Below, one piece after another: positions 10,284-63,200 of a stretch of 64,000 nt of DNA. Under the pieces are notes generated by a model. It ran no database searches. It had not been told where the DNA came from and worked only from the letters and a program-made list of their open reading frames with translations. Each line of letters begins with the position of its first letter. The stretch's first letter is position 1. The DNA is from Trueperaceae bacterium. GTDB lineage: Bacteria; Deinococcota; Deinococci; Deinococcales; Trueperaceae. The DNA lies in NCBI GenBank assembly GCA_965215565.1, contig CBDCDZ010000004.1, positions 1,632,001 to 1,696,000 on the forward strand, in the 5' to 3' direction. A program made the translations under genes and the position numbers.

Positions 10284-10397
10284 GTAGTGGCTTTATCTGG
10301 AATGACGCTGATGTCAAAGCAAGGGGCTTCAACCCCTTGTTCACCACGTGGAGAGAGTAGGGGGAGCGCGTAGTAGCATTCGGCTCAGAACCACTAC
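10284..10397 (+). repeat. 114-bp GTAG...CTAC repeat (family 2), copy 1
   Basis: Colinear with and the same length as 45929-46042. Central palindrome CAAGGGG-n6-CCCCTTG. Confidence 0.8.
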
Positions 10398-10413
10398 CTG
10401 ACTCGAGACGGCC

Positions 10414-17767: not shown

Positions 17768-17899
17768 TAGCAGGTATCATCTGGTCAGAGTGTACGAAGT
17801 CCTGTGAAGCAACACTACCACTGTATAAAGAGATGTCTACCACGCACATTCAGGGATGATACCTGTGGCACTTTGTCTCAGTACGTCTTGGAACTGCTA
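17768..17899 (+). mobile_element. family-1 MITE-like element, copy A (132 bp)
   Basis: TAGCAGGTATCATCTGG...GTCTCAGTACGTCTTGGAACTGCTA. 111-bp core plus a 21-nt cassette. Confidence 0.85.
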
Positions 17900-20480: not shown

Positions 20481-20502
20481 AACAAGGGGTTGCAACCCCT
20501 TG
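20481..20502. repeat. isolated family-2 core palindrome
   Basis: AACAAGGGGTTGCAACCCCTTG without the family-2 flanks. Confidence 0.65.
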
Positions 20503-20520
20503 GACCTAGAACCTCTCGTT

Positions 20521-20796
20521 TCAGCCTCGAGCCCCAACGAGCGCAAGTTTTCGTGCCCTCGGCAACTGTTTGATGGCGCGTTCGCGGCGCAGGGCGTGGA
20601 CGCGGTCTTGCGCGCGCTCACTGTAGACGAGTTCGACAGGGCGAAACGCGCGGGTGTAGCGCGCGCCCACGCCCCGGTTATGCTCCTCTAAGCGGCGCTC
20701 GAGGTCCGTCGTGACGCCCGTGTAAAGCGCGTCGTTGCGGCAGCGCACGATGTAGACGTGCCACCTGACCTCATACTCCGCGGGAATATCCTTCAC
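20521..20796 (-). CDS. GIY-YIG nuclease (UPF0213/YhbQ-like)
   Basis: VYIVRC...LYTGVTTDLERRLEEHN.G.GARYT and ALRRERAIK. Confidence 0.92.
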   Translation of the reverse strand: MKDIPAEYEVRWHVYIVRCRNDALYTGVTTDLERRLEEHNRGVGARYTRAFRPVELVYSERAQDRVHALRRERAIKQLPRARKLALVGARG

Positions 20797-27475: not shown

Positions 27476-27654
27476 TAGCAGGTATCATCTGGTTTGAGTG
27501 TACGTAAGTTTTGCGAAGCAACACGCTCACCGTAGGAAACGATGTTTCCTATGGAAAACTGCGTAACTAACACGCACATTATGAGATGAAATCCCGCTAG
27601 TCCTTACGGACAGAGACCTGCAGCATTTTATCTCAGTATGTCTTGGAACTGCTT
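27476..27654 (+). mobile_element. family-1 MITE-like element, copy B (179 bp)
   Basis: 111-bp core plus cassettes of 22, 21 and 25 nt. Confidence 0.85.
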
Positions 27655-38576: not shown

Positions 38577-38817
38577 TAGCAAGTCTCAGGCGGAGCCTAG
38601 CGGAACTTCATTTGGTTTGAGTGAATGAAATTATGCGAAGAGACGCTCTCACGATGTAAAACACCGTTGCTTAACGGCAAACTACGTCATTCGCTTTGCG
38701 AAAACTTCGTCCCTACAGGCTTTCAGAAATTAGCATACACTTGATTGTAATGAGGTTCCGTTGTAGCAAGCTGTGCAACCTGCGTGATTCGCTTCTCAGC
38801 TTTTCTGATAACCGCTA
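38577..38817 (+). mobile_element. family-1 MITE-like element, copy C (241 bp, diverged)
   Basis: TAGCAAGT...TCATTTGGTTTGAG...TCTCAG...ACCGCTA, with inserts of about 22, 21, 62 and 23 nt. Confidence 0.75.
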
Positions 38818-40450: not shown

Positions 40451-40557
40451 CTGGTAGTTCTAAGTAGAACGTCGCCGTGTAACGAACAAGGGGTTGAAAC
40501 CCCTTGTTTCGACATCCCTTGCTTCGATATCAGCGTCATTCCAGATAGAGCCACGAC
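40451..40557 (-). repeat. family-2 repeat, copy 2 (internal duplication and deletion)
   Basis: Reverse complement GTCGTGGCTCTATCTGGAATGACGCTGAT...CAAGGGGTTTCAACCCCTTGTTC...CTTAGAAC matches the 10284 copy. Confidence 0.75.
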
Positions 40558-40576
40558 TCTCCTGGCTTCTCCACCC

Positions 40577-44262: not shown

Positions 44263-44458
44263 TAGCAGGTTACTTCGTATAGCTTCGCTCAATCATCTGG
44301 TCAGAGTGTACGAAGTCCTGCGAAGCAACACTACCACTGTAAGAAACACTATTCAGCGCGCACATTATAGGATGAAATCCCGCTAGTCCTCTTCTGCGAA
44401 GCCTGCGTAACGGACAGAGACCTGCGCTCATTTGTCTCGGTATGCCTTGGAAGTGCTG
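44263..44458 (+). mobile_element. family-1 MITE-like element, copy D (196 bp)
   Basis: 111-bp core plus 21, 21, 25 and a nested 18-nt cassette. Confidence 0.85.
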
Positions 44459-45230: not shown

Positions 45231-45362
45231 TAGCAGGTATCATCTGGTTTGAGTGAATGAAATTGTGCGAAGCAACACTCTCACTATATGAAACGACGTT
45301 TAGCACGCACATTCGATGATGATACCTGCGGCGTTCTGTCTCAGTATGTCGTGGAACTGCTA
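45231..45362 (+). mobile_element. family-1 MITE-like element, copy E (132 bp)
   Basis: 111-bp core plus 21 nt. Intact internal inverted repeat GCAGGTATCATC (45233)/GATGATACCTGC (45318). Confidence 0.87.
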
Positions 45363-45928: not shown

Positions 45929-46042
45929 GTAGTAGCTCCATCTGCAATGGCGCCGGTGTCAAAGCAAGGGGTTGAAACCCCTTGTTCATCGTATGGAGAT
46001 GGCAGAAGTAGCGCGCGGCGGTATCCGACTTAGAAGCGCTAC
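45929..46042 (+). repeat. family-2 repeat, copy 3 (114 bp)
   Basis: Colinear with 10284-10397. Confidence 0.8.
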
Positions 46043-46109
46043 CCTTAGCAAGAGCGAAAGAGGCCCAAGAAAATAGCGTTCGACATAATCATCTATAAAA
46101 AGTAGGTAC

Positions 46110-46823: not shown

Positions 46824-47022
46824 AAGCAGTTCATAGAAGTACTGAATTGGAATAGCGCAAGCCTCAGTTCGAAGAACTAGCGGGATTTCATTTAAGAATG
46901 TGTGTGTTCGCCGGTGTTCTCTAACGTGAGACTGGCTCAAACCAAATGAAGTTCCGCTCTCAGGCAAAGCCATCCCGCTAGGCTTCGCCTGAGAGCGGGA
47001 CGGCTCCGCCTGAGACTTGCTA
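46824..47022 (-). mobile_element. family-1 MITE-like element, copy F (199 bp)
   Basis: 111-bp core plus 64 nt (22 + 42) and 24 nt. Confidence 0.8.
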
Positions 47023-53328: not shown

Positions 53329-56300
53329 CTACCACGTAAAACTCACCCCGAAGCGCGCGCGCGCGCTCTGATTCAGACCCGACGCGCCCAAACCTGCCTC
53401 GAGGCTGATGAGGGGGGTCACGGCGTAGCCCAAAGAGAAGTCGAACTCGGTTACGGCGGAGGCGTCGTTCAAGAAGTTGACCTCGCCGGCGAGAAGAAGT
53501 TCCAGAGGTGCTAAGTCGTAGCGGAGGGAGAACTCGTTGGAGAGGGCGTAGCGCCCTTCGGGGTCGTCGAAGCGCCCGACTTCCAAGCTGGCGAAGAGGT
53601 CGTCGCCAATATAACCGCCTACGCGCAGCGACACGCCGAAGGGGTCCTCTTGGCTACCAGCTAAAAGCGAGCTGACGGCGCTCGTGCGAATTTCGAATAA
53701 GCCGACGCCGAGCGCGTCGCCCAGGGCGCTCTGCAGCTCGGACAAGACGAGAAAGTCCACGGCGGTGTCGATGGCACCTTCGGCGATGGTACCCGCTAAG
53801 CTGTCCGCGCCCGCTAAACCCGTGCCGAGCTGCAAGCGCCCCAAGGTGAGGAGCGAGACCAACTCCGGCTCGTCCAGCGGGCGCGGCGCATTGCCGCCCT
53901 GCTCCTGGATGGCGGCGTCGCTGCTCAGGCTCGGCTCGAGGTCGAGCACGGGGCGGCTTCGCCCCGCCACCTCTTCGAAGCTGCCGTCCACGCTCAGTTG
54001 TACGCCGAAGGTGCGCCCCTCGCGCGGCTCGACGAAGGTGTACGTGTTCCGCAAGTTGCCGAGCGCGTCGTCCTTATCGAAGGTGGCTTGCGCGACGAGA
54101 TCGAGCACCGGGAAGACGCCTTGCGAGGGCTCAAAGGTGGCGGTGCCCTCCTCGATGACGAAGTCTTTGCCCGAGAAGCGCACCGTCCCCTGGAGCGTGC
54201 GCGCGACGCCCGAAAGTGCCGGGTCAGCCGCCGTCCCGCTGAGGTCCAAGTCAAAGGTGAGTTCGGCGGTGCCGAAGCCCGCGCGGAAGAGCACGCTGCT
54301 CTGCGCGAGGATATCCACGTCTTCGAAGAGGATGCGCTGTAAGACGGGATTGGGAGCCGCAGTGGTGGACGCGGAGGATCCCGCCCCAAACGGTGCGCCC
54401 GCTCCGCTTTGTCCGCTCGAGCCGAACGCGCCCAACTGGGACGTAGGGCTAGGCGTGGGAGCAGGCGCGTCGCCGCTCGCTGCGCCCGGCTCGGCGTCCG
54501 GTACGAAGGGCGCGCCCGCTTCGCTCGTTCGGCCCGTACCCGTTTGGCTCGTATTCGCACCCGACGGAGTCGCATCCGAACTCGCCGCGCCCGCTCCCTC
54601 TGAGGTGTCACTTGAGCCGCTGCGGTTGCGGGCGGTGGTGAGGCGCGCGCTCTCGACGACGGCGTCGCCGGAGATGACGAAATTTTCGCCGCGCCGCGTG
54701 ATATCGAACGCCGCGTCGGTGGCGCTCGAGGCGACGAAGAAGTTCTGCGCGTTCAAGTTTAGGTTCTCGCCGCGCAGCGCCAAGTTGAGCGGCGCTAAGC
54801 TGCCCGTCAGCGTGACGGGCTGACCGAGCGAGGCGCGGCTATCGAGTCTCCAGCCGTCACCCGAGCCCGCCGTGACCTCACCCGCGATGCGGCGCACGGG
54901 TCCCACGACGGGCAGCGCCGCGTTGCCCTCGAAATCCAGCGCGAAATCCTCCAAGCTGTAGGGCGCGAGGCTGAGCCGCCCGCCGCCGCGCAGCGCGAGG
55001 GAGCCGCCGATGGGCGCGACGCCCTCTGCCGCCGCGACGATATCTAAGTCCTCGTCATTGAGGGTGACTCTCGTTCCGGTGAGACGGTACGTAGAGCCCG
55101 CCAAGCGGAGCTGCAAGTTGGGGCTCGTCAGCTCGAGCTGCGGCTCACCTAAAGTACCCGTCGCCGCCAAGCTCAGTGAGCCTTGCGCCCCGACGCCCAG
55201 GGCCGCGAGGCGCGGCGCGAGGCTTAGCAGGGGCGTGACGTCGGCGTCTTCGGCTTGGAGCGAGAGGTCTAAGACGTCGCGGGTGACGCGCCCCGACGCC
55301 CGCCAGAAGCCGCCGCCGCGAAACTCGGCGCGGTCGATGATGAGCCCGCCCTCGTCATAGCGGAGCGCCACCTCACCGCGCGTCACCTGATCCGAGCCCT
55401 CACGCCTCAAGGTGAGCCGCTCGGTGGCGACTTGCACGTAGCTCTGCGCAGGCGCGTTCAGCGGCACGTCGAAGCGCGCCGCGCCCGTCGCGGACGCATT
55501 GACCGTACTCGCACCCGTCGCAGCTTCCGCCAAAATTTCTAGCGGGAACTGCTCCAGGTCAAAAAAGCCCGACACGCCCTCGCCATCGTAGCCAACGCGG
55601 AGCTGGCTGTCGCCCAGACTCGCTCTCGCCTCGAGGTTTTGCACCGTGCCGCTCAGCTCGACTTGCGTCGGCAACGTCGTCTGCGCCACGCTCAAGCCAG
55701 GGCTGACGAGCTGCCCGACGACTTGGTTGCCGTTGAGCCGCACGACGCCGCTCAGGGGCGCGTCCAGGTTCGGCACGCGCCGCTGCAAGAGGGGCAGCTC
55801 AGAGACGTTCACGCCGTCTAAGCGCAGCCGCGCGACGCGGGCGCGGTTCGCCTGCGGCAGGTACGTCTCCCGCAGTCCTTGAGGGATGAACTGCGCCCAG
55901 CCGAGCTGCCCCTGCACCGTCGCCTGCCCCGCCCCCACGCCGAGCGCGCCGCTGCCGCGCAGCCCGCGCGGGTCCGCCGTGAGGAGTGTCGTGAGGGTGA
56001 GCGCAGGCAAGTCGGGCGCGTCGGCTAGGGGCACCTCGAGCAGCCGGATATCGCCTGTCGGTCCTGTCTCGGGCGTGTAGCGCAGCGCAGCGCTCAGCTC
56101 GCCCGCCGCCTGAACGGTGGACGCGTCTTCGTCCGCTTCACTCGTCGCCGCGCCCGTGCCGAGCGCGAGATCGGCGTCTAGCGCGGCGGTCCGCGCCGCC
56201 CAGTCCACGCTCGCGTCCAACGTGCCGACGTCGCCCGCCGCGCTCACCTCGGCGCGGCTGTCCGCCACGTCCAATTCGAAGGGGAGCGCCCTGACCTCGG

Positions 56301-59300
56301 CGAGCCAGGGGAGGAACGTCGTTTCTTCTAGGGTGGCGTCCTCTGCGCCGCGCCACGTCCCCTGAAGGTCCACGTCGCCGGGAACGGCGGTGCCGGCTAG
56401 CTCGAGCGTCCCTAAAGCCGTCCCCCAACGCAACTCGGACACCTCGGCGCGGGGCGTCGGCTGCGCCTGCAGCGTGACGCTGCCCTGCGTGTCCTGCACG
56501 CCCGCGAGGGTGAAACCGCGCAGCAGTTCGCCCGCCCAGACCTGCGGCGGCCCGCTCGGCAGCGTGCCCGAGAGCGCTAAGCCGGGCGTTTGCGGCGCGC
56601 TCAAAGCGAGGTCGAGCCAGCCGCCCGCCACCTCGCTCGGCGTGAGGCGGACGCTCGCCGGACCTGCGCCGAGCGCCAGCGCCCCGGACGCGGCGAGCGT
56701 GCCCTCCGCTCGCGTCACGGTGAGTTGGTTTTGCGGCGAAGTACTGAGTGACAGCTTGAGCGGCAGCGCCGTCCCGGTCAGCGCGAGCGGCTCCTCTAAA
56801 AATGGCGAGACTAGGCGCTGCTCCAACGCCAAACGTCCTGGGCTCAGCGCAAAGGTGCCCGCGAGGGCGTTCGCGTCCCGTTCTAAGGTGAGCGTGCCGT
56901 CTAAAGACGGCTCGGCTAACGCGCCCGAGAGCGTCGCCTGCACGTCCGCCTCGGCTCCTCGTAAAGTAACGTCAGACAGCTCGAGCCTCCCGGACCAGCC
57001 GCTCACCTCGTCCGTGACGCCGTAGCGCGCGTCCAAGTCGAGCGTGCCCGACAAGAGGTCCGCCTGCGACGCCACCCTGAGTCCGTCGTCGCCGTAACGC
57101 ACGGCGAGTGGCACCTGGAGTGCGTCACCGGCTAGGGTGCTGGAAAGAACCGCGTCCAGCGCGCCCTCGCTCAACGTTCCGCCACCCTCCGCGGCGAGCG
57201 CACTGTCACTGGGAAGGGGCAGCTCGAGCCGCGCCTGCCACGTCACGGCGTCCGTCAAGTCCACCGACGCCGTGAGGATGTCGCCCTGCAGGGTGAGGCG
57301 CTCGAGGTCCCCCTCACCTTCCGAGCTGAGCGCAAGGTCACCCAGCGCCAAAGGACCTGCCTGCAAGCCGGTGAACGTCCCGGCGACGCTCACCTCAGAA
57401 CCCCAAGCCGCCGCTAAGTCGAGCGCCCCACCGAGCTGAGGCGACAGACTCGCCAAATCGCCCGTGAGCTGCGCCTCGCTCGTGCTTAGCGCGCCGCGCC
57501 AGCCCGCGAGCTTCTCGTTGCCTGCGAGCAAAATCGTGTCGTCCGCCGCGTCCAGCGCCAAGGCGTAGTCCGCGAACGCCACCTGCCCCTCCGCCGCGAG
57601 TTCACCCAAGCGCCAGCGGAGGCGCAAGTCACTGTTGAGCGCCCCGAGCGCCAATGTGCTCGTCAGCGCGGCGTAGCGCCCCGGCTCTAAGCGAGCCGTG
57701 AGACCACCCTCAGCGCTGCCGGTTCCCACCAGGCGCGTCTCCAGAGTCGGCGCGCCGAGCGTCCCACCCAGGTCCAAGTCGCCCCCCAAACTCCACGGCG
57801 ACTCCGCGAGCCCCACGTTTCGAACGGCGAGCGTGCCCGAGAGGGGCGTCCCCGCCGGAGCGTCCGCGCTGCCGATGAGGAGCGCGCCTTCCAGTTCACC
57901 GCGCGCGCTGCCTAGCTCTGCTAAATCTACGCTCACATCCAGGGGCGCGTAGAGCGCGCCGTCATAACGCAACTCTCCCGCCACGCGGCTGCGCACGCTC
58001 TCCAAAAGGAGCGTGTCCGCTCGAATATCAGGCGCGCCACCCCACGTGCCCGCACCCTGGAGTTGCGCCGTTAAGCGCGGCGCGTCCAGAGGCGGCAAGA
58101 GGTCTTGGACGAGCAGCGCGTCCGCGTCAAGACTGAGTGTCCAACCCTGCGGCGTCGCCTGCGCGCCCACGTCCAAAGCGTCATTTTGCAGGATGAAACT
58201 CGCACCTTCACGCGAGGCGCGCAGCGCGCCCGCCGCCTCTAACGCGCCTTCGAGAGTCACCGGACCCGCGAGGTTGGGCTGACTCAGGGTGCCGCCGAGC
58301 GTCAAGTCGCCGACGAACGCGAGCGGCTCGCCGGGATACGCCGCGCTGAGGTCGCTCACGGGCGCAGCCACGTTCACGCTGCCCGAAACGCTCCCGTCAC
58401 GCCAGGGCGCGCGGCTCAGCGCGGCTTGAAGCGTCGCGACCTCTTCGCCGCCGTAACCCATCAAACCCGATACCTCGAGGTTGCCCCGCCCTGCGAGGGT
58501 GACAGAAGCGTTCGCCTCACCTTGCGCGAACACCGCTTGCGCCTCGCCGGAGAAGCCCGACCCGGTTCTCCACGCGAGATCGCTGACGAGGTTCGTACCG
58601 AAGACCTCGAGCGCCCCCTCCGCCCGGAGCGATTCCAGGGCGAATCCTGGCGAGAGGTCCGCGAGGAGCGTCAACTCACCCGGCTCTAAAAGCAAGAGGT
58701 AGCCGTCCTCTCGCCTGAAACCTATCTCAACAGGCTCATCTAGCACGCCCGTTTGCAAGCTGCCCGTGAGGTCTGGGTTGGGCCAGGCGGGACCCGCGAG
58801 TGATAGCGCGAGGTTGCGCTGCGGTAATGCGGCGCTCAGAGAGGTCAGCGCGAACTGCCCGTTCTCGCGCGTCGCGCGAAAGTCAGCGCTGAGCGGTTGC
58901 GCGACGTTCGCCACACCGTTAGGCGCGTTCAGCTCGCCCTGTATCTGCTGAGCTGTGGCGTCTACGCTGAGGGTTGCGTCGCCCAAAGTCGCGTTGAGGT
59001 CGCCTGTGAGGGTGGCAGGCTCGAGCGACCCCGCTACGCTCAGCGGCTCGCCCTGGAAGGTGCCGTCTCCGGTCACGCGCACCCGCTCCCCCGCCCTCAC
59101 TTGCGCTTGAAGCGTCAGCGGACCTTCGTCTAGGGACACGTCATAGGTGTTCGCCTCGCCGCTCGCCGCGTTGTCCAGTGCAATCCTCGTTCCCGCAACC
59201 TCACCGGTAATATCTACACCCGTTTCGTCGCCCGCGCGGACGCGCACGTCGAGCGGTCTTCCTTGCGCTGTGCCCGCCGCGTTCAGGTCGGCGCCGTAGC

Positions 59301-62300
59301 TGAGCCCCTCATCCGTGCGGCTGAACTGCGCCGTGCCCGACGCGGTGCCGGTGGGCGAACCCGGGACGAGACCCTGCACGTTAGCGAGGTCGAAGTCCTC
59401 AAGTTGCGTGCTCGCCTCCACGTCCGCGCCCGCTCCGCTCACTTGAAAGGGGACCCTGCCGTCACGAAGGCGCAGCGCGCCCTCACCGCCGTAGTTTTGG
59501 CGCTCGCCTGAGACCGTCGCCTGCACGCCGATGGGCGCGCCCCGGTACGTCCCGTCGCCCGTCACGTCCGCGTTCCACGACAGGTCTTGTGAAAAGGAGA
59601 GGTCGGCGTTAAGCTGCGCGTCCTCCGTAGGGAGAAAGGGCGCGGCGTCCACATTGAGCGAGGCTTGACCGCCTTGCCGACTCGCGCTCACCGGACCCTG
59701 CACGAGCGGTCCTCGCACATTGCCGTCAAGCTGCGGCGACGCGGTTTCCCCGGTAAGATTCGCTTGGAGCGTATGCGCTTCGCCGCGCAAGGTGAAGGGC
59801 AGATCAACGTTCCCCGCCCACGTTCCACCATTCAAATTGAGGTCGATATTCTCACCGTTAAGTTGCGCGGATAATCCACCTGAGAGCGACGCCTGTACCT
59901 GCGCGGTCTGCGCGTTCACGCTCGCCTGCGGCGTCTCTACCGCCTGCGTCTGTAAGGTGCCGTCAAACGAGGCACTGTTAAGCGAAGTGCCGCGCAGCGT
60001 GCCGCTAAGCTGCGCCCGCTCCGCCGCGCTCGCGTCCACCTCGAGATTGGGCGCAGGCAAGACCTGACCCGACACGGAAGCGTCTAGAGCACCTTGAGCG
60101 GTTTGCGCGTCTAGCCTCAGCGCGTCGCCTGCGCCGACGAGTTCTACAGCAGCGTCTACAGGCGCGTCCACTTGCGCGTTGAGCGCGCCGTTCCAGCCGC
60201 CCGCGTAGCCGAGCGAGCCGTTCAAGGTGGCGTTAATGTCGGGTTGCGTAAGGAAAGGCGAGAGGGTGAAGCCGTCCGCCTCGAGGTTGAAACCCCCCCT
60301 GGTTGAGAATGCGCTACGAAGTCCCTCCGCGCTTAGTGTTCCTTCGGATTGACCCCCTCGTCCCTGCGCGTTGAGTTCTAAAGACTGCTCGGCCGTTCCC
60401 CACACCGTCTCCACGTCGTAACTCGGCTCCAAGAGGTTCGCCTGCGCGTCCAGCCGCACGTCGCCATTGAGCGCAACCGCGTCCGACGCGAGCAAGAGGT
60501 CGGCGGGCACCGTGCCCGTCACCAAGAGGTCGCGAAAGGTGCCCGAAACGTCCAGTGTCGCGTCCTCGGCGAAGGCGAGCACGCCGTCTACGGTGCCGGT
60601 GAGGGCTTGTGCATTCTCTAAAGACACGTCAGCGTTCAGGTCAAAGGGCGCGACGCCGAACGCGGCGAGGTCCGCAGCGTCGACGGTGACTTGACTCGTG
60701 AGCGCGTCTTCGTTTCGCTCGAGCACCCCCCCTTGCAGGCTGAGGCTGCCCTGAACTCGCCCGCCCAAATCGAGGCTGTCGAGGGCGTATTCTAAACGCC
60801 CTGTCTGGTCAGCCAAGTCGAAGGAGCCGTTCGCGCTGAGCGGTCCGAACTGCGCGGAGAGGTCGCGTAGCGTTGTACCGTCCAGTACGGCGCGCGCCGC
60901 GCCCGAGAGGTCGCTCGCCAACTCAACGCCCGCCACACTCGGCGTGAGGGCGTTCTGCGTCCCTAAGCGGAGCGTCACAGGCAGTTCGCTCAGCGTGCCA
61001 TCCGCGCTCAGCGTAGCGTTCAAGGGCTCCGCTTGGACGGGCGTACCTTCCAAGCTCACCCCTTGCGCCCTCAGCTCGCCCGTGAGCTGTTCGCCGCGCA
61101 GCGCCACCTCACCGCTGAGTGCCGCGCCTAGATCGTCACCACCCGAGAGGTCAACAATCCAGCCACCGTCCGCTAGGGCTGCCGCGTCCGCGTTTAGAGA
61201 CAACGCGCGCCCGGCGGCGCTGCCCGACAGTGCTAGGCGCGCGTCCCCCGACAGCCCCTCCGACTGCTGCAAATCCGCCCGCAGGTCCGCCCTGAACTGC
61301 TCGGTTACGTTGACGCCTTCGGCTTGCGCCTGGATGCCTACGCCGCCCCCCTCTAGCGGGGTCACGCTCGCTGTAAAGGGTCCGCCCGCAAGCGCGCCGT
61401 TCGCCTGAACGCGCGTGCCCACCTCCGTCTCGAAGCCGAAGTCTACATCTAAATCCTCTAACGCCCGCCCGAACACCTCGCCCTGCCCCTGCGCCTGACC
61501 CGTGAGGTCGATCTGCTGCCAGCCCGAGAGCGAGAGGGACACATCCGCGTCGCCCGTGACTGCGCCTTCGGGCACGTCGCCGCGCGCCAGCCACGCCGCC
61601 GCTTCTGCAAGCTTCGCGTCGCCCGTCACCTCCGCCTGCCACCGCTGCGCGGAGATATCCACCACCGCGTCGCCCTGCACGTCGCCGCCGAGGGCGCGCC
61701 CGGTGAGGTCCGCTGTGACGGTCTGCCCGTCGAAATTTACAGGTCCTGAAAGTTCTGTGATCGTCGTGCCAGCGACTGTGACCGCGCCCTGCGCAAGCGC
61801 TAAGTCCGCCTTAGCTTCCCCGTCCGCGTACGTCACCGTGCCCGACGCCTGCCCGCCTTCCACGCCTTCGAACCAGTGCTTCGCCACCGCTAGATCGACG
61901 CGGGGCAACCGCGCGTCGATGTTCAAGGGCGAAAAGGCGACGTCCGCGTCTACTTGCGCCTCGCCTTGCGGCGTCGTCAGCGTCGTGGCGACGCCCAATC
62001 CGTCCTCGGTGTCGTTCACGCTGAGGTCCGCCACATTCAGGTCGGGGAGCGTGTAGGGCACGTCGTTCACGTTCAAGTTGACGCCGTTCACATCCGCGCT
62101 ACGCAGCACCGGGCGAATCGGCCGGTTCCCACTGCTCCCGTTCCCCTGCGGCACGCGGACCTCTTGCGGCTCAATGTCGCCCGAGACGTCCGCCACCGAG
62201 ACGGAGAAGGGGAGGCGTCCTGCGAGGAGTCCGAGCAGGTTGTACTCCAAGGAGAGCCGCTCTAAGCGCGCGTTCACGCCCGGCCCCGTCACCTCTGCGC

Positions 62301-62547
62301 CGCGCAAGGTCACACCGCGCCACAAGTTGCCCGCGCTCCGCGCGTACGAGAGGTCGTAGCCTAAGTCAGACACGACGTTCTGGGCTCTCGAGAGCGCCCA
62401 TCCCCTCACGGCGGGCAGTTGCGGCGCGAAGTAGAGCGCGAGCGCAAGCACGAGCAACAAGGCAGGGACGAGCACGCGCTTCTGAACGCGCGCACCTCTT
62501 AGGGCGCTTAGGGCTCCACTGGACTGTTCACGACTCGGTTGCGACAT
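53329..62547 (-). CDS. tamB: giant translocation/assembly module TamB-like (AsmA/DUF490) protein, about 3070 aa
   Basis: N-terminal TM anchor, long Gly-rich amphipathic beta repeats, and a DUF490-like C-terminus (LSGTAADPALSG, P.LD..A, LVSLL.LG). Start taken at MSQPS. Confidence 0.85.
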   Translation of the reverse strand: MSQPSREQSSGALSALRGARVQKRVLVPALLLVLALALYFAPQLPAVRGWALSRAQNVVSDLGYDLSYARSAGNLWRGVTLRGAEVTGPGVNARLERLSLEYNLLGLLAGRLPFSVSVADVSGDIEPQEVRVPQGNGSSGNRPIRPVLRSADVNGVNLNVNDVPYTLPDLNVADLSVNDTEDGLGVATTLTTPQGEAQVDADVAFSPLNIDARLPRVDLAVAKHWFEGVEGGQASGTVTYADGEAKADLALAQGAVTVAGTTITELSGPVNFDGQTVTADLTGRALGGDVQGDAVVDISAQRWQAEVTGDAKLAEAAAWLARGDVPEGAVTGDADVSLSLSGWQQIDLTGQAQGQGEVFGRALEDLDVDFGFETEVGTRVQANGALAGGPFTASVTPLEGGGVGIQAQAEGVNVTEQFRADLRADLQQSEGLSGDARLALSGSAAGRALSLNADAAALADGGWIVDLSGGDDLGAALSGEVALRGEQLTGELRAQGVSLEGTPVQAEPLNATLSADGTLSELPVTLRLGTQNALTPSVAGVELASDLSGAARAVLDGTTLRDLSAQFGPLSANGSFDLADQTGRLEYALDSLDLGGRVQGSLSLQGGVLERNEDALTSQVTVDAADLAAFGVAPFDLNADVSLENAQALTGTVDGVLAFAEDATLDVSGTFRDLLVTGTVPADLLLASDAVALNGDVRLDAQANLLEPSYDVETVWGTAEQSLELNAQGRGGQSEGTLSAEGLRSAFSTRGGFNLEADGFTLSPFLTQPDINATLNGSLGYAGGWNGALNAQVDAPVDAAVELVGAGDALRLDAQTAQGALDASVSGQVLPAPNLEVDASAAERAQLSGTLRGTSLNSASFDGTLQTQAVETPQASVNAQTAQVQASLSGGLSAQLNGENIDLNLNGGTWAGNVDLPFTLRGEAHTLQANLTGETASPQLDGNVRGPLVQGPVSASRQGGQASLNVDAAPFLPTEDAQLNADLSFSQDLSWNADVTGDGTYRGAPIGVQATVSGERQNYGGEGALRLRDGRVPFQVSGAGADVEASTQLEDFDLANVQGLVPGSPTGTASGTAQFSRTDEGLSYGADLNAAGTAQGRPLDVRVRAGDETGVDITGEVAGTRIALDNAASGEANTYDVSLDEGPLTLQAQVRAGERVRVTGDGTFQGEPLSVAGSLEPATLTGDLNATLGDATLSVDATAQQIQGELNAPNGVANVAQPLSADFRATRENGQFALTSLSAALPQRNLALSLAGPAWPNPDLTGSLQTGVLDEPVEIGFRREDGYLLLLEPGELTLLADLSPGFALESLRAEGALEVFGTNLVSDLAWRTGSGFSGEAQAVFAQGEANASVTLAGRGNLEVSGLMGYGGEEVATLQAALSRAPWRDGSVSGSVNVAAPVSDLSAAYPGEPLAFVGDLTLGGTLSQPNLAGPVTLEGALEAAGALRASREGASFILQNDALDVGAQATPQGWTLSLDADALLVQDLLPPLDAPRLTAQLQGAGTWGGAPDIRADTLLLESVRSRVAGELRYDGALYAPLDVSVDLAELGSARGELEGALLIGSADAPAGTPLSGTLAVRNVGLAESPWSLGGDLDLGGTLGAPTLETRLVGTGSAEGGLTARLEPGRYAALTSTLALGALNSDLRLRWRLGELAAEGQVAFADYALALDAADDTILLAGNEKLAGWRGALSTSEAQLTGDLASLSPQLGGALDLAAAWGSEVSVAGTFTGLQAGPLALGDLALSSEGEGDLERLTLQGDILTASVDLTDAVTWQARLELPLPSDSALAAEGGGTLSEGALDAVLSSTLAGDALQVPLAVRYGDDGLRVASQADLLSGTLDLDARYGVTDEVSGWSGRLELSDVTLRGAEADVQATLSGALAEPSLDGTLTLERDANALAGTFALSPGRLALEQRLVSPFLEEPLALTGTALPLKLSLSTSPQNQLTVTRAEGTLAASGALALGAGPASVRLTPSEVAGGWLDLALSAPQTPGLALSGTLPSGPPQVWAGELLRGFTLAGVQDTQGSVTLQAQPTPRAEVSELRWGTALGTLELAGTAVPGDVDLQGTWRGAEDATLEETTFLPWLAEVRALPFELDVADSRAEVSAAGDVGTLDASVDWAARTAALDADLALGTGAATSEADEDASTVQAAGELSAALRYTPETGPTGDIRLLEVPLADAPDLPALTLTTLLTADPRGLRGSGALGVGAGQATVQGQLGWAQFIPQGLRETYLPQANRARVARLRLDGVNVSELPLLQRRVPNLDAPLSGVVRLNGNQVVGQLVSPGLSVAQTTLPTQVELSGTVQNLEARASLGDSQLRVGYDGEGVSGFFDLEQFPLEILAEAATGASTVNASATGAARFDVPLNAPAQSYVQVATERLTLRREGSDQVTRGEVALRYDEGGLIIDRAEFRGGGFWRASGRVTRDVLDLSLQAEDADVTPLLSLAPRLAALGVGAQGSLSLAATGTLGEPQLELTSPNLQLRLAGSTYRLTGTRVTLNDEDLDIVAAAEGVAPIGGSLALRGGGRLSLAPYSLEDFALDFEGNAALPVVGPVRRIAGEVTAGSGDGWRLDSRASLGQPVTLTGSLAPLNLALRGENLNLNAQNFFVASSATDAAFDITRRGENFVISGDAVVESARLTTARNRSGSSDTSEGAGAASSDATPSGANTSQTGTGRTSEAGAPFVPDAEPGAASGDAPAPTPSPTSQLGAFGSSGQSGAGAPFGAGSSASTTAAPNPVLQRILFEDVDILAQSSVLFRAGFGTAELTFDLDLSGTAADPALSGVARTLQGTVRFSGKDFVIEEGTATFEPSQGVFPVLDLVAQATFDKDDALGNLRNTYTFVEPREGRTFGVQLSVDGSFEEVAGRSRPVLDLEPSLSSDAAIQEQGGNAPRPLDEPELVSLLTLGRLQLGTGLAGADSLAGTIAEGAIDTAVDFLVLSELQSALGDALGVGLFEIRTSAVSSLLAGSQEDPFGVSLRVGGYIGDDLFASLEVGRFDDPEGRYALSNEFSLRYDLAPLELLLAGEVNFLNDASAVTEFDFSLGYAVTPLISLEAGLGASGLNQSARARFGVSFTW

Positions 62548-62724
62548 AATTTGATAGTGACCGTTCGCGCTGCGGCGTGAACGGCTTAGACAGGATAACA
62601 CTACCGCTGATTGGGCGGGCGAAAGGGCGCTATCAATAGTGCGTTTTTTCTCTAACCCCAGCGGTTGATGAACATAAATACACGAATCTAACGCTGACCT
62701 CATGCTCTTCTCTGAAAGTTCTTA

Positions 62725-62980
62725 TAGCGGTTCCAAGACATACTGAGATAGATGAGCGCTTTCCGTAGGCTTTCGCCAAAGGCGGGAGACGGAAGTTTTG
62801 GCAACGCTAAAGGCGTCATCACCAAACGTGCGTGCTACGTTTCTGAAAGCTGCTCCGCGGAAGCGAGCAGTCTGAAAGCCCGCAGGGACGCAAGTTTGCT
62901 GCCTAGCAACGCCACTTCGAACAGTGAGAACGTTTCAAACCAGCTCCGAACGTTAGTGAGACAGACTTTGATACCTGCTA
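62725..62980 (-). mobile_element. family-1 MITE-like element, copy G (256 bp)
   Basis: 111-bp core plus inserts of 24, 70 and 51 nt. Confidence 0.82.
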
Positions 62981-63066: not shown

Positions 63067-63200
63067 TAGCAGTTCCACGACATACTGAGACAAAGTGCCG
63101 CTTACGAAGTTTTGCCTCCGGCAAGGGTATCATCTCGAAAAGTGTGTGCTAGAGCGTGCTGTTCAAAGTGAGAGTGTCTCAAATCAGATGATACCTGCTA
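63067..63200 (-). mobile_element. family-1 MITE-like element, copy H (134 bp)
   Basis: 111-bp core plus a net 23 nt. Empty at the site filled in copies A-E. Confidence 0.87.

Follow-up and report, generated by a model that had tools for sequence, protein, structure and literature searches.

The small dispersed repeats (SDR1-8) of the cyanobacterium Nostoc are reportedly about 21-27 nt long, fall into several families, carry covarying stems and insert precisely. They are also said to nest in themselves, in MITEs or minitransposons and in tandem heptamer arrays, and to have been mobile recently, with an RNA route suggested. Fungal mitochondria hold double-hairpin elements and GC clusters that are small, non-coding and inferred to be mobile, and whose mover is not known. 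By these reported traits, the cassettes analyzed here resemble the Nostoc SDRs in size, number of families, covariation, nesting and host repeats, but differ in phylum, in the loss of a target A, in having loops of the DNA mini-hairpin type and in that no reverse transcriptase (RT) was found in this genome. The fungal double hairpins lie in organelle DNA and have longer, GC-rich stems. The cassettes are a variant, with new junction and loop rules, of a known but unexplained SDR-like kind. The Nostoc study (Elhai et al., 2008, Genome Res 18:1484) is cited in the accessible parts of PMC4390886, PMC2884548 and PMC3116915.

Two other comparisons are close. REPs and REPINs are described, in the accessible parts of the source papers, as small mobile palindromes of non-coding DNA that presumably travel as single strands (PMC3116915, PMC3733652); the cassettes are smaller, with stems of 2-5 bp, lack the GTAG/CGTC tags and land inside other repeats, and we found neither a cognate RAYT flanked by the cassette repeat nor any RAYT that tracks the cassettes. 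Mosaic small noncoding repeats (SNRs) are on record in Deinococcus radiodurans, and these share with the cassettes their phylum, small size, intergenic location and mosaic build, although the available portion of that paper does not describe SNR modules as independently mobile hairpins (PMC1978522). The claim of an earlier note that nothing of the sort had been described in this phylum is tempered by the D. radiodurans SNRs; identity with the cassettes is not implied. A search of the open literature turned up nothing published about elements of this kind in Trueperaceae, nor about the rule of a lost A.

The window, a 64,000-nt stretch of a Trueperaceae bacterium genome (G000, positions 1632001-1696000 of contig C4), contains eight copies of a MITE-like host repeat that adjoin ordinary metabolic genes on both sides; an Rfam search of the full 64 kb gave zero matches. 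Seven copies align to a 111-bp profile, and six of these seven are flanked by a 3-bp target duplication; copy C was read by eye instead. The earlier decomposition of the eight copies into a core plus cassettes is reproduced by the profile for the seven and confirmed by eye for C. Insert lengths against the 111-bp profile are +21 in A, +22+21+25 in B, +21+21+43 (25 with a nested 18) in D, +21 in E, +64+24 in F, +24+70+51 in G and +23 in H. The inserts of 43-70 nt resolve into nested stacks.

Copy D (44263-44458, plus strand) is a 111-bp core with three inserts and a 3-bp target duplication; family names were coined in this analysis. An alpha1 double mini-hairpin lies reversed at host site 8 (44271-44291, minus strand) and another lies forward at host site 24 (44307-44327, plus strand), so that both 21-mers are where they had been reported. 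A beta cassette, a hairpin with a fixed tail, replaces host base 72 (44376-44419, minus strand) and bears in the loop of its hairpin a nested alpha/gamma-like insert of 18 nt net (44392-44409, minus strand). On the plus strand, copy A (17768-17899) holds alpha1 at 17791-17811; copy B (27476-27654) holds alpha1 at 27499-27520, alpha2 at 27546-27566 and beta at 27590-27615, with limits counted from the sequence; and copy E (45231-45362) holds alpha1 at 45254-45274. Copy C (38577-38800, plus strand), decayed at its right end and so of approximate end, was read by eye as beta (38585-38607), alpha1 (38622-38642), an alpha2+alpha2+gamma stack (about 38668-38729) and a further beta (about 38754-38777). 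The alpha1 cassette had been placed after TTTGAG throughout A-E, which fails for A and D, where CAGAG precedes it. The minus-strand copies are F (46824-47022), with three nested beta cassettes at 46950-47014 and a beta at 46863-46887; G (62725-62980), with delta at 62944-62968, alpha2+gamma+gamma at 62839-62908 and alpha2 plus a gamma-like unit at 62760-62811; and H (63067-63200), in which an alpha2 cassette stands in place of host base 76 (63102-63125).

Across the genome, the host search went from 604 starts through 413 good alignments to 397 copies once overlaps were removed, 116 of them empty, and among 233 end-paired copies in G000 76 measure exactly 111 bp. The 111-bp host has the marks of a MITE: its ends are inverted over 6 bp, and 157 of 227 copies are flanked by a duplicated 3-bp target; no autonomous partner with host ends was found in G000 or in the fetched stretches of relatives. 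We took a census of insert sizes from 354 well-scoring copies, up to core position 85. Of its 427 inserts, 28 are of 1-3 nt, 16 of 4-16, 8 of 17-19, 255 of 20-26, 4 of 27-38 and 74 of 39-53 nt, and 42 are longer. The sizes are thus discrete rather than continuous, with the predicted peak at 20-26 nt and hardly anything at 4-16 or 27-38 nt. Nor are the cassettes bound to one fixed MITE position: in the host they occupy about seven fixed sites (core positions 8, 9, 13, 24, 48, 72 and 76), and they also occur in other repeats. A separate palindromic insert of 103-104 nt occurs at host site 48 in both orientations (copies E140, E155 and E156).

We defined nine pattern families, read on the strand that carries GNA loops. 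Alpha1 and alpha2 (21-25 nt) and gamma (at least 17 nt) have an initial T followed by two adjacent mini-hairpins, in keeping with the multi-stem build first proposed for all cassettes; beta, delta and epsilon (20-26 nt) depart from it in having a single hairpin and a fixed tail, and zeta, theta and the 27-nt eta are less frequent or of different build. Long inserts are stacks, such as beta in beta, gamma in alpha2 and eta in beta, and alpha2 nests in the loop of alpha2 or in the linker of alpha1.

Covariation of the stems, asserted in the earlier note, exceeds a half-swap control in four of six tested frames. Pairing is kept in 41 of 59 distinct variants of beta, 40 of 58 of alpha2, 24 of 25 of the first alpha1 hairpin and 13 of 16 of delta, against control means of 9.3, 11.4, 11.4 and 6.2 (maxima 20, 18, 17 and 11), counts that come from related variants and hence are not probabilities. 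The remaining two frames, the second alpha1 hairpin (5 of 19; control maximum 6) and gamma (5 of 28; maximum 8), do not exceed the control. As to loops, the GNA part of the original description fits well and GNRA is a minor class. A first census of 128 loops gave 88 triloops (51 GNA, 5 TNC) and 35 tetraloops (5 GNRA, none of UNCG type). A second, of 125 variants, gave 99 C(GNA)G loops on the GNA strand and 4 on the opposite one, an asymmetry partly built in for alpha because its strand was assigned from its loops, along with 21 GNRA and 11 GNYA loops. DNA folding energies favor the GNA strand (79 versus 29) and RNA energies do not (50 versus 63). According to the accessible parts of PMC13037366, GNA alone among the 64 triloops makes a DNA mini-hairpin, which is nuclease-resistant, binds single-stranded DNA-binding protein (SSB) poorly when two stand in tandem, and melts far lower in its RNA form. 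Selection has thus favored C(GNA)G hairpins on one strand of the cassettes.

Filled and empty alleles, both of which had been claimed, occur side by side among near-identical paralogous hosts. Among 253 clean copies, cassette presence differs in 122 of 152 host pairs with 0-2 differences over 85 columns, a mismatch of 0.80 as compared with 0.77 in all pairs, and where both hosts are filled at one site they share an identical variant in only 6 of 34, 18 of 49, 6 of 19 and 1 of 5 cases. Mapped on a tree of the cores, filled states change 17, 18, 48, 48, 56 and 32 times against shuffled values of 16.6, 17.5, 53.8, 57.8, 62.4 and 31.8, whereas core columns excluded from tree building show 6, 45, 29 and 46 changes against 56.8, 84.5, 59.3 and 84.9. 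Since the changes lie near the shuffled values, most filled sites represent separate events, as would be expected of the mobile elements that the cassettes were first taken to be; only at site 48, with 48 changes against a shuffled minimum of 49, is there some inheritance with the host. A single variant can be carried by as many as 10 host clusters, and one such variant is a 52-nt nested unit. The three read runs were contigs, all of which break at repeats.

It is scarcely credible that the length variants arose by deletion from a single long MITE ancestor or that they are ancient inserts passed down with the MITE. The weak tree signal at site 48 and the sharing of some identical variants across species would fit such a history. 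Near-identical hosts, however, carry different and mutually exclusive cassettes at the same site, empty copies retain a base that filled copies lack, and cassettes exist outside the 111-bp host. The junction base loss, the comparison of host pairs and the tree test together refute this reading.

Insertion is site-specific and precise, has occurred on many occasions independent of the host MITE, and leaves the flanks uncopied. At sites 24, 48 and 72 (35 copies per site, 1-8 bases either side of the junction) mismatch between a filled copy and its nearest empty relative matches that between empty copies, so the flanks are those of the recipient, although conserved bases next to the junction mask very short conversion tracts. 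A raised mismatch to the left of site 76 was dismissed as an effect of 5 mis-sited beta rows among 16. Filling shows no consistent bias with the direction of replication or transcription (best p 0.03 of seven sites, with weak skew), and the bias with that best p has the same direction for opposite strands; because neither direction predicts filling, there is no support for a lagging-strand or transcript route.

These flank data bear on the idea that micro-homology homing or template switching between repeats, over about 10 bases of shared flank, spreads rare first insertions without a dedicated enzyme, an account that we consider unlikely. It would explain why cassettes are nearly confined to repeats, why nested units move whole and why variants are loyal to their sites: the commonest beta variants of site 72 are missing among 10 simple variants of site 9, which has the same 11-base motif. 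Against it, co-conversion is absent even 2 bases from the junction, alpha1 follows many left flanks, alpha2 occurs in 53 distinct contexts, and the same families appear in unrelated hosts (heptamer arrays, the second repeat and the hairpin loops of other cassettes). Flanks so varied and hosts so unrelated call for a homology-free step, and the lost A, recurring in at least five contexts, means that first insertions need a mechanism whether or not homing follows. Site loyalty does suggest that homing may add to the spread of cassettes.

The junctions carry the most specific evidence. A model in which one target base is lost fits better than plain insertion for 95 of 96 inserts at base 72, 21 of 21 at base 13, 17 of 18 at base 9 and 14 of 27 at base 76, where the other 13 start with the same letter and cannot discriminate. 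Since the loss model never fits worse, the weight of the case rests on the empty copies, and in these the base is T in 110 of 116 (base 72), T in 116 of 116 (base 13), A in 115 of 116 (base 9) and T in 114 of 116 (base 76). Read on the GNA strand, the lost base is an A at all four host sites. Ten nested inserts favor loss; nine lose A and one, an epsilon, loses G. No loss is seen with the 27-nt eta family. At sites 8, 24 and 48 alpha itself ends in A, so that loss and plain insertion before an A look alike. The same junctions occur at site 72 in the relatives G001 (7) and G002 (12), as found with a pattern written for them. No target duplication was found at cassette junctions, and the cassettes do not share the MITE combination of terminal inverted repeats and duplication. 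The sites show no 1-base deletions such as excision scars would leave; a G instead of T at base 72, seen in 6 of 198 unfilled copies, may have arisen by slippage between the short repeats found at either end of beta. Inspection by eye for guide pairing of cassette with target gave no rule, and an apparent loss at position 22 in six of six cases was dropped as a profile artefact from a host subfamily.

We think it somewhat probable that these SDR-like micro-elements move as single-stranded DNA by means of a putative cut-and-join activity. Several non-coding families would be copied as intact units into short target motifs that almost always lie inside other palindromic repeats. The traveling form would be a single-stranded DNA oligomer whose C(GNA)G mini-hairpins might shield it from nucleases and SSB. 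A shared activity may open the target on either side of the A, whether by paired nicks or by removal of the base and opening of the gap; the oligomer would then be joined into the one-base gap and replication would fix the insert. The enzyme responsible might belong to the repair or ligation machinery of the host and not be a transposase encoded by the element. A more specific version, in which a host repair or ligation pathway, or a protein family not yet described, installs single-stranded DNA mini-hairpins of 20-26 nt by excising one target adenine and ligating the oligomer in its place, is possible yet doubtful. If this holds, the mini-hairpins would rank as the smallest units of site-specific DNA mobility; their chemistry would be unlike that of DDE, HUH, serine, tyrosine, IS110 or retro-elements, and a widespread, enzyme-light mobility of this sort could explain the cyanobacterial SDRs as well. 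How SDR-type elements of 21-27 nt move, open since 2008, becomes testable here with about 400 host copies and matched empty and filled sites; the junction rule, the DNA loop rule and the missing RT each narrow the chemistry. A system able to place a small oligomer at a single base might also appeal to genome engineers.

That a small RNA is copied by RT, as proposed for the cyanobacterial SDRs, with the lost A a misread branch or junction base, appears to us very improbable. Four RT loci (618-637 aa) are present in G001, some loops are GNRA, and beta, epsilon and alpha2 vary in their final base, all of which such a route could accommodate. Yet RVT_1, the one RT model used, has no match in the cassette-rich G000 (99.99% complete) or G002, triloops prevail (88 of the 128 in the first census), and there is no sense/antisense bias 3' of genes.

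An enzyme acting in trans from a known mobile element (an IS110 bridge recombinase, a transposase of the host MITE or a RAYT-like HUH protein) is, in our judgment, a highly unlikely mover. The IS110 candidate is an element present in seven copies in the host repeat (C4:3105961-3107204; also at 638695, 681608, 1226928, 1291004, 2530155 and 4135758), at a distance of two bases from the beta site; its left non-coding end holds guide-like matches to both target and donor, and IS110 as a family occurs in all four cassette-rich genomes. The element targets the same host motif as the cassettes but is autonomous, 1.16 kb long, and duplicates a 2-base core with no base lost; neither its donor sequence nor its core duplication was found in the cassettes, which thus do not look like IS110 derivatives, and IS110 is present in 31 of 81 genomes of the family. 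The single Y1 domain of G000 lies inside a restriction-modification gene adjoining a different palindrome, and none was found in G001 or G002. At cassette sites IS110 was the only long coding parent, and a search for coding parents bounded by cassette or MITE ends gave none. GIY-YIG genes (five of five genomes, the cassette-poor one included) and four-helix-bundle genes (three of five, missing from G361) do not discriminate; tyrosine recombinases are present in five of five, the two best of G000 scoring under the integron-integrase cut-off, and DUF559 and GxxExxY are absent from G000. None of the gene classes originally put forward for co-distribution (HUH/RAYT, IS110, RT or recombinase), as sampled by Y1, IS110, RVT_1 and tyrosine-recombinase searches, tracks the cassettes.

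As side observations, the Y1 domain is RAYT/IS200-like and in frame in its restriction-modification gene (C4:3784707-3788666), after which come palindromes belonging to the second repeat family of the window. Further IS110 elements lie in other repeat families of relatives (L153 and L157 in G002; L154 and L158 in G361).

The claim of an SDR-like family of structure-selected micro-elements is upheld by the discrete sizes, the several sites, the covarying stems, the nesting and the decoupling from the host. A structure scan for alpha gave 168 matches within the host against 11 for the control, 82 elsewhere between genes against 13, and 135 in genes, where the control gave 192, so genes are not enriched; matches outside the host lie mostly in other repeats, among them inverted heptamer arrays and a second repeat whose end motif is similar. 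In a search of 265 genomes, with one genome left out, the alpha pattern matched 82 times in G000, 30 in G001, 24 in G002 and 25 in G361, which belongs to another genus (the three relatives being of Trueperaceae level), and 0-2 times, as in the control, in each of the rest; the 105 genomes of family f2 likewise have 0-2 matches each. The same families stand at the same sites in 15 of 30 sampled host copies of G001, which aligns to G000 at only about 83% identity, and in 25 of 31 of G002, whose tiles were picked around known matches; this excludes an assembly artefact. Two Trueperaceae bacterium loci (L021 and L022) bear these cassettes too, in host repeats of the kinds seen here, which agrees with the assignment to Deinococcota in the earlier note, and some identical variants are common to several species. 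G005 and G273 each have 28 host-end matches and a cassette in none of 10 sampled copies, and thereby form a natural negative set for an enzyme search. Among 43 host loci mapped into 800 kb (about 17%) of G001 there was no orthologous filled/empty pair; nine were flagged, and none proved a common insertion differing by its cassette.

The 71 exact matches to the wide pattern included no cyanobacterial record, and most of them are one conserved coding motif; among plasmids, too, no cyanobacterial record turned up. Alpha-like strings also appear in records from outside Trueperaceae (L036, L039, L085, L086, L087, L053, L067, L083 and L084); by eye, four lie in integron attC-like stretches of Patescibacteria and archaea, and one adjoins heptamer repeats in Hymenobacter. 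About 50 inverted heptamer-repeat arrays occur on C4 (others at L148-L152), and four-helix-bundle genes (TIGR02436) flanked by heptamer repeats occur in G000, G001 and G002. No host copies were found on contigs C1-C3 of G000, of which C3 is a near-exact tandem double of an 11-kb unit and probably an over-assembled circular plasmid. The second repeat family of the window, with a 22-base palindrome inside, lies at 10284-10398, 40484-40561, 45929-46043 and 20483-20504, and a small GIY-YIG gene (20548-20763) adjoins one of its palindromes. A 3124-codon open frame occupies 53329-62703 on the minus strand.
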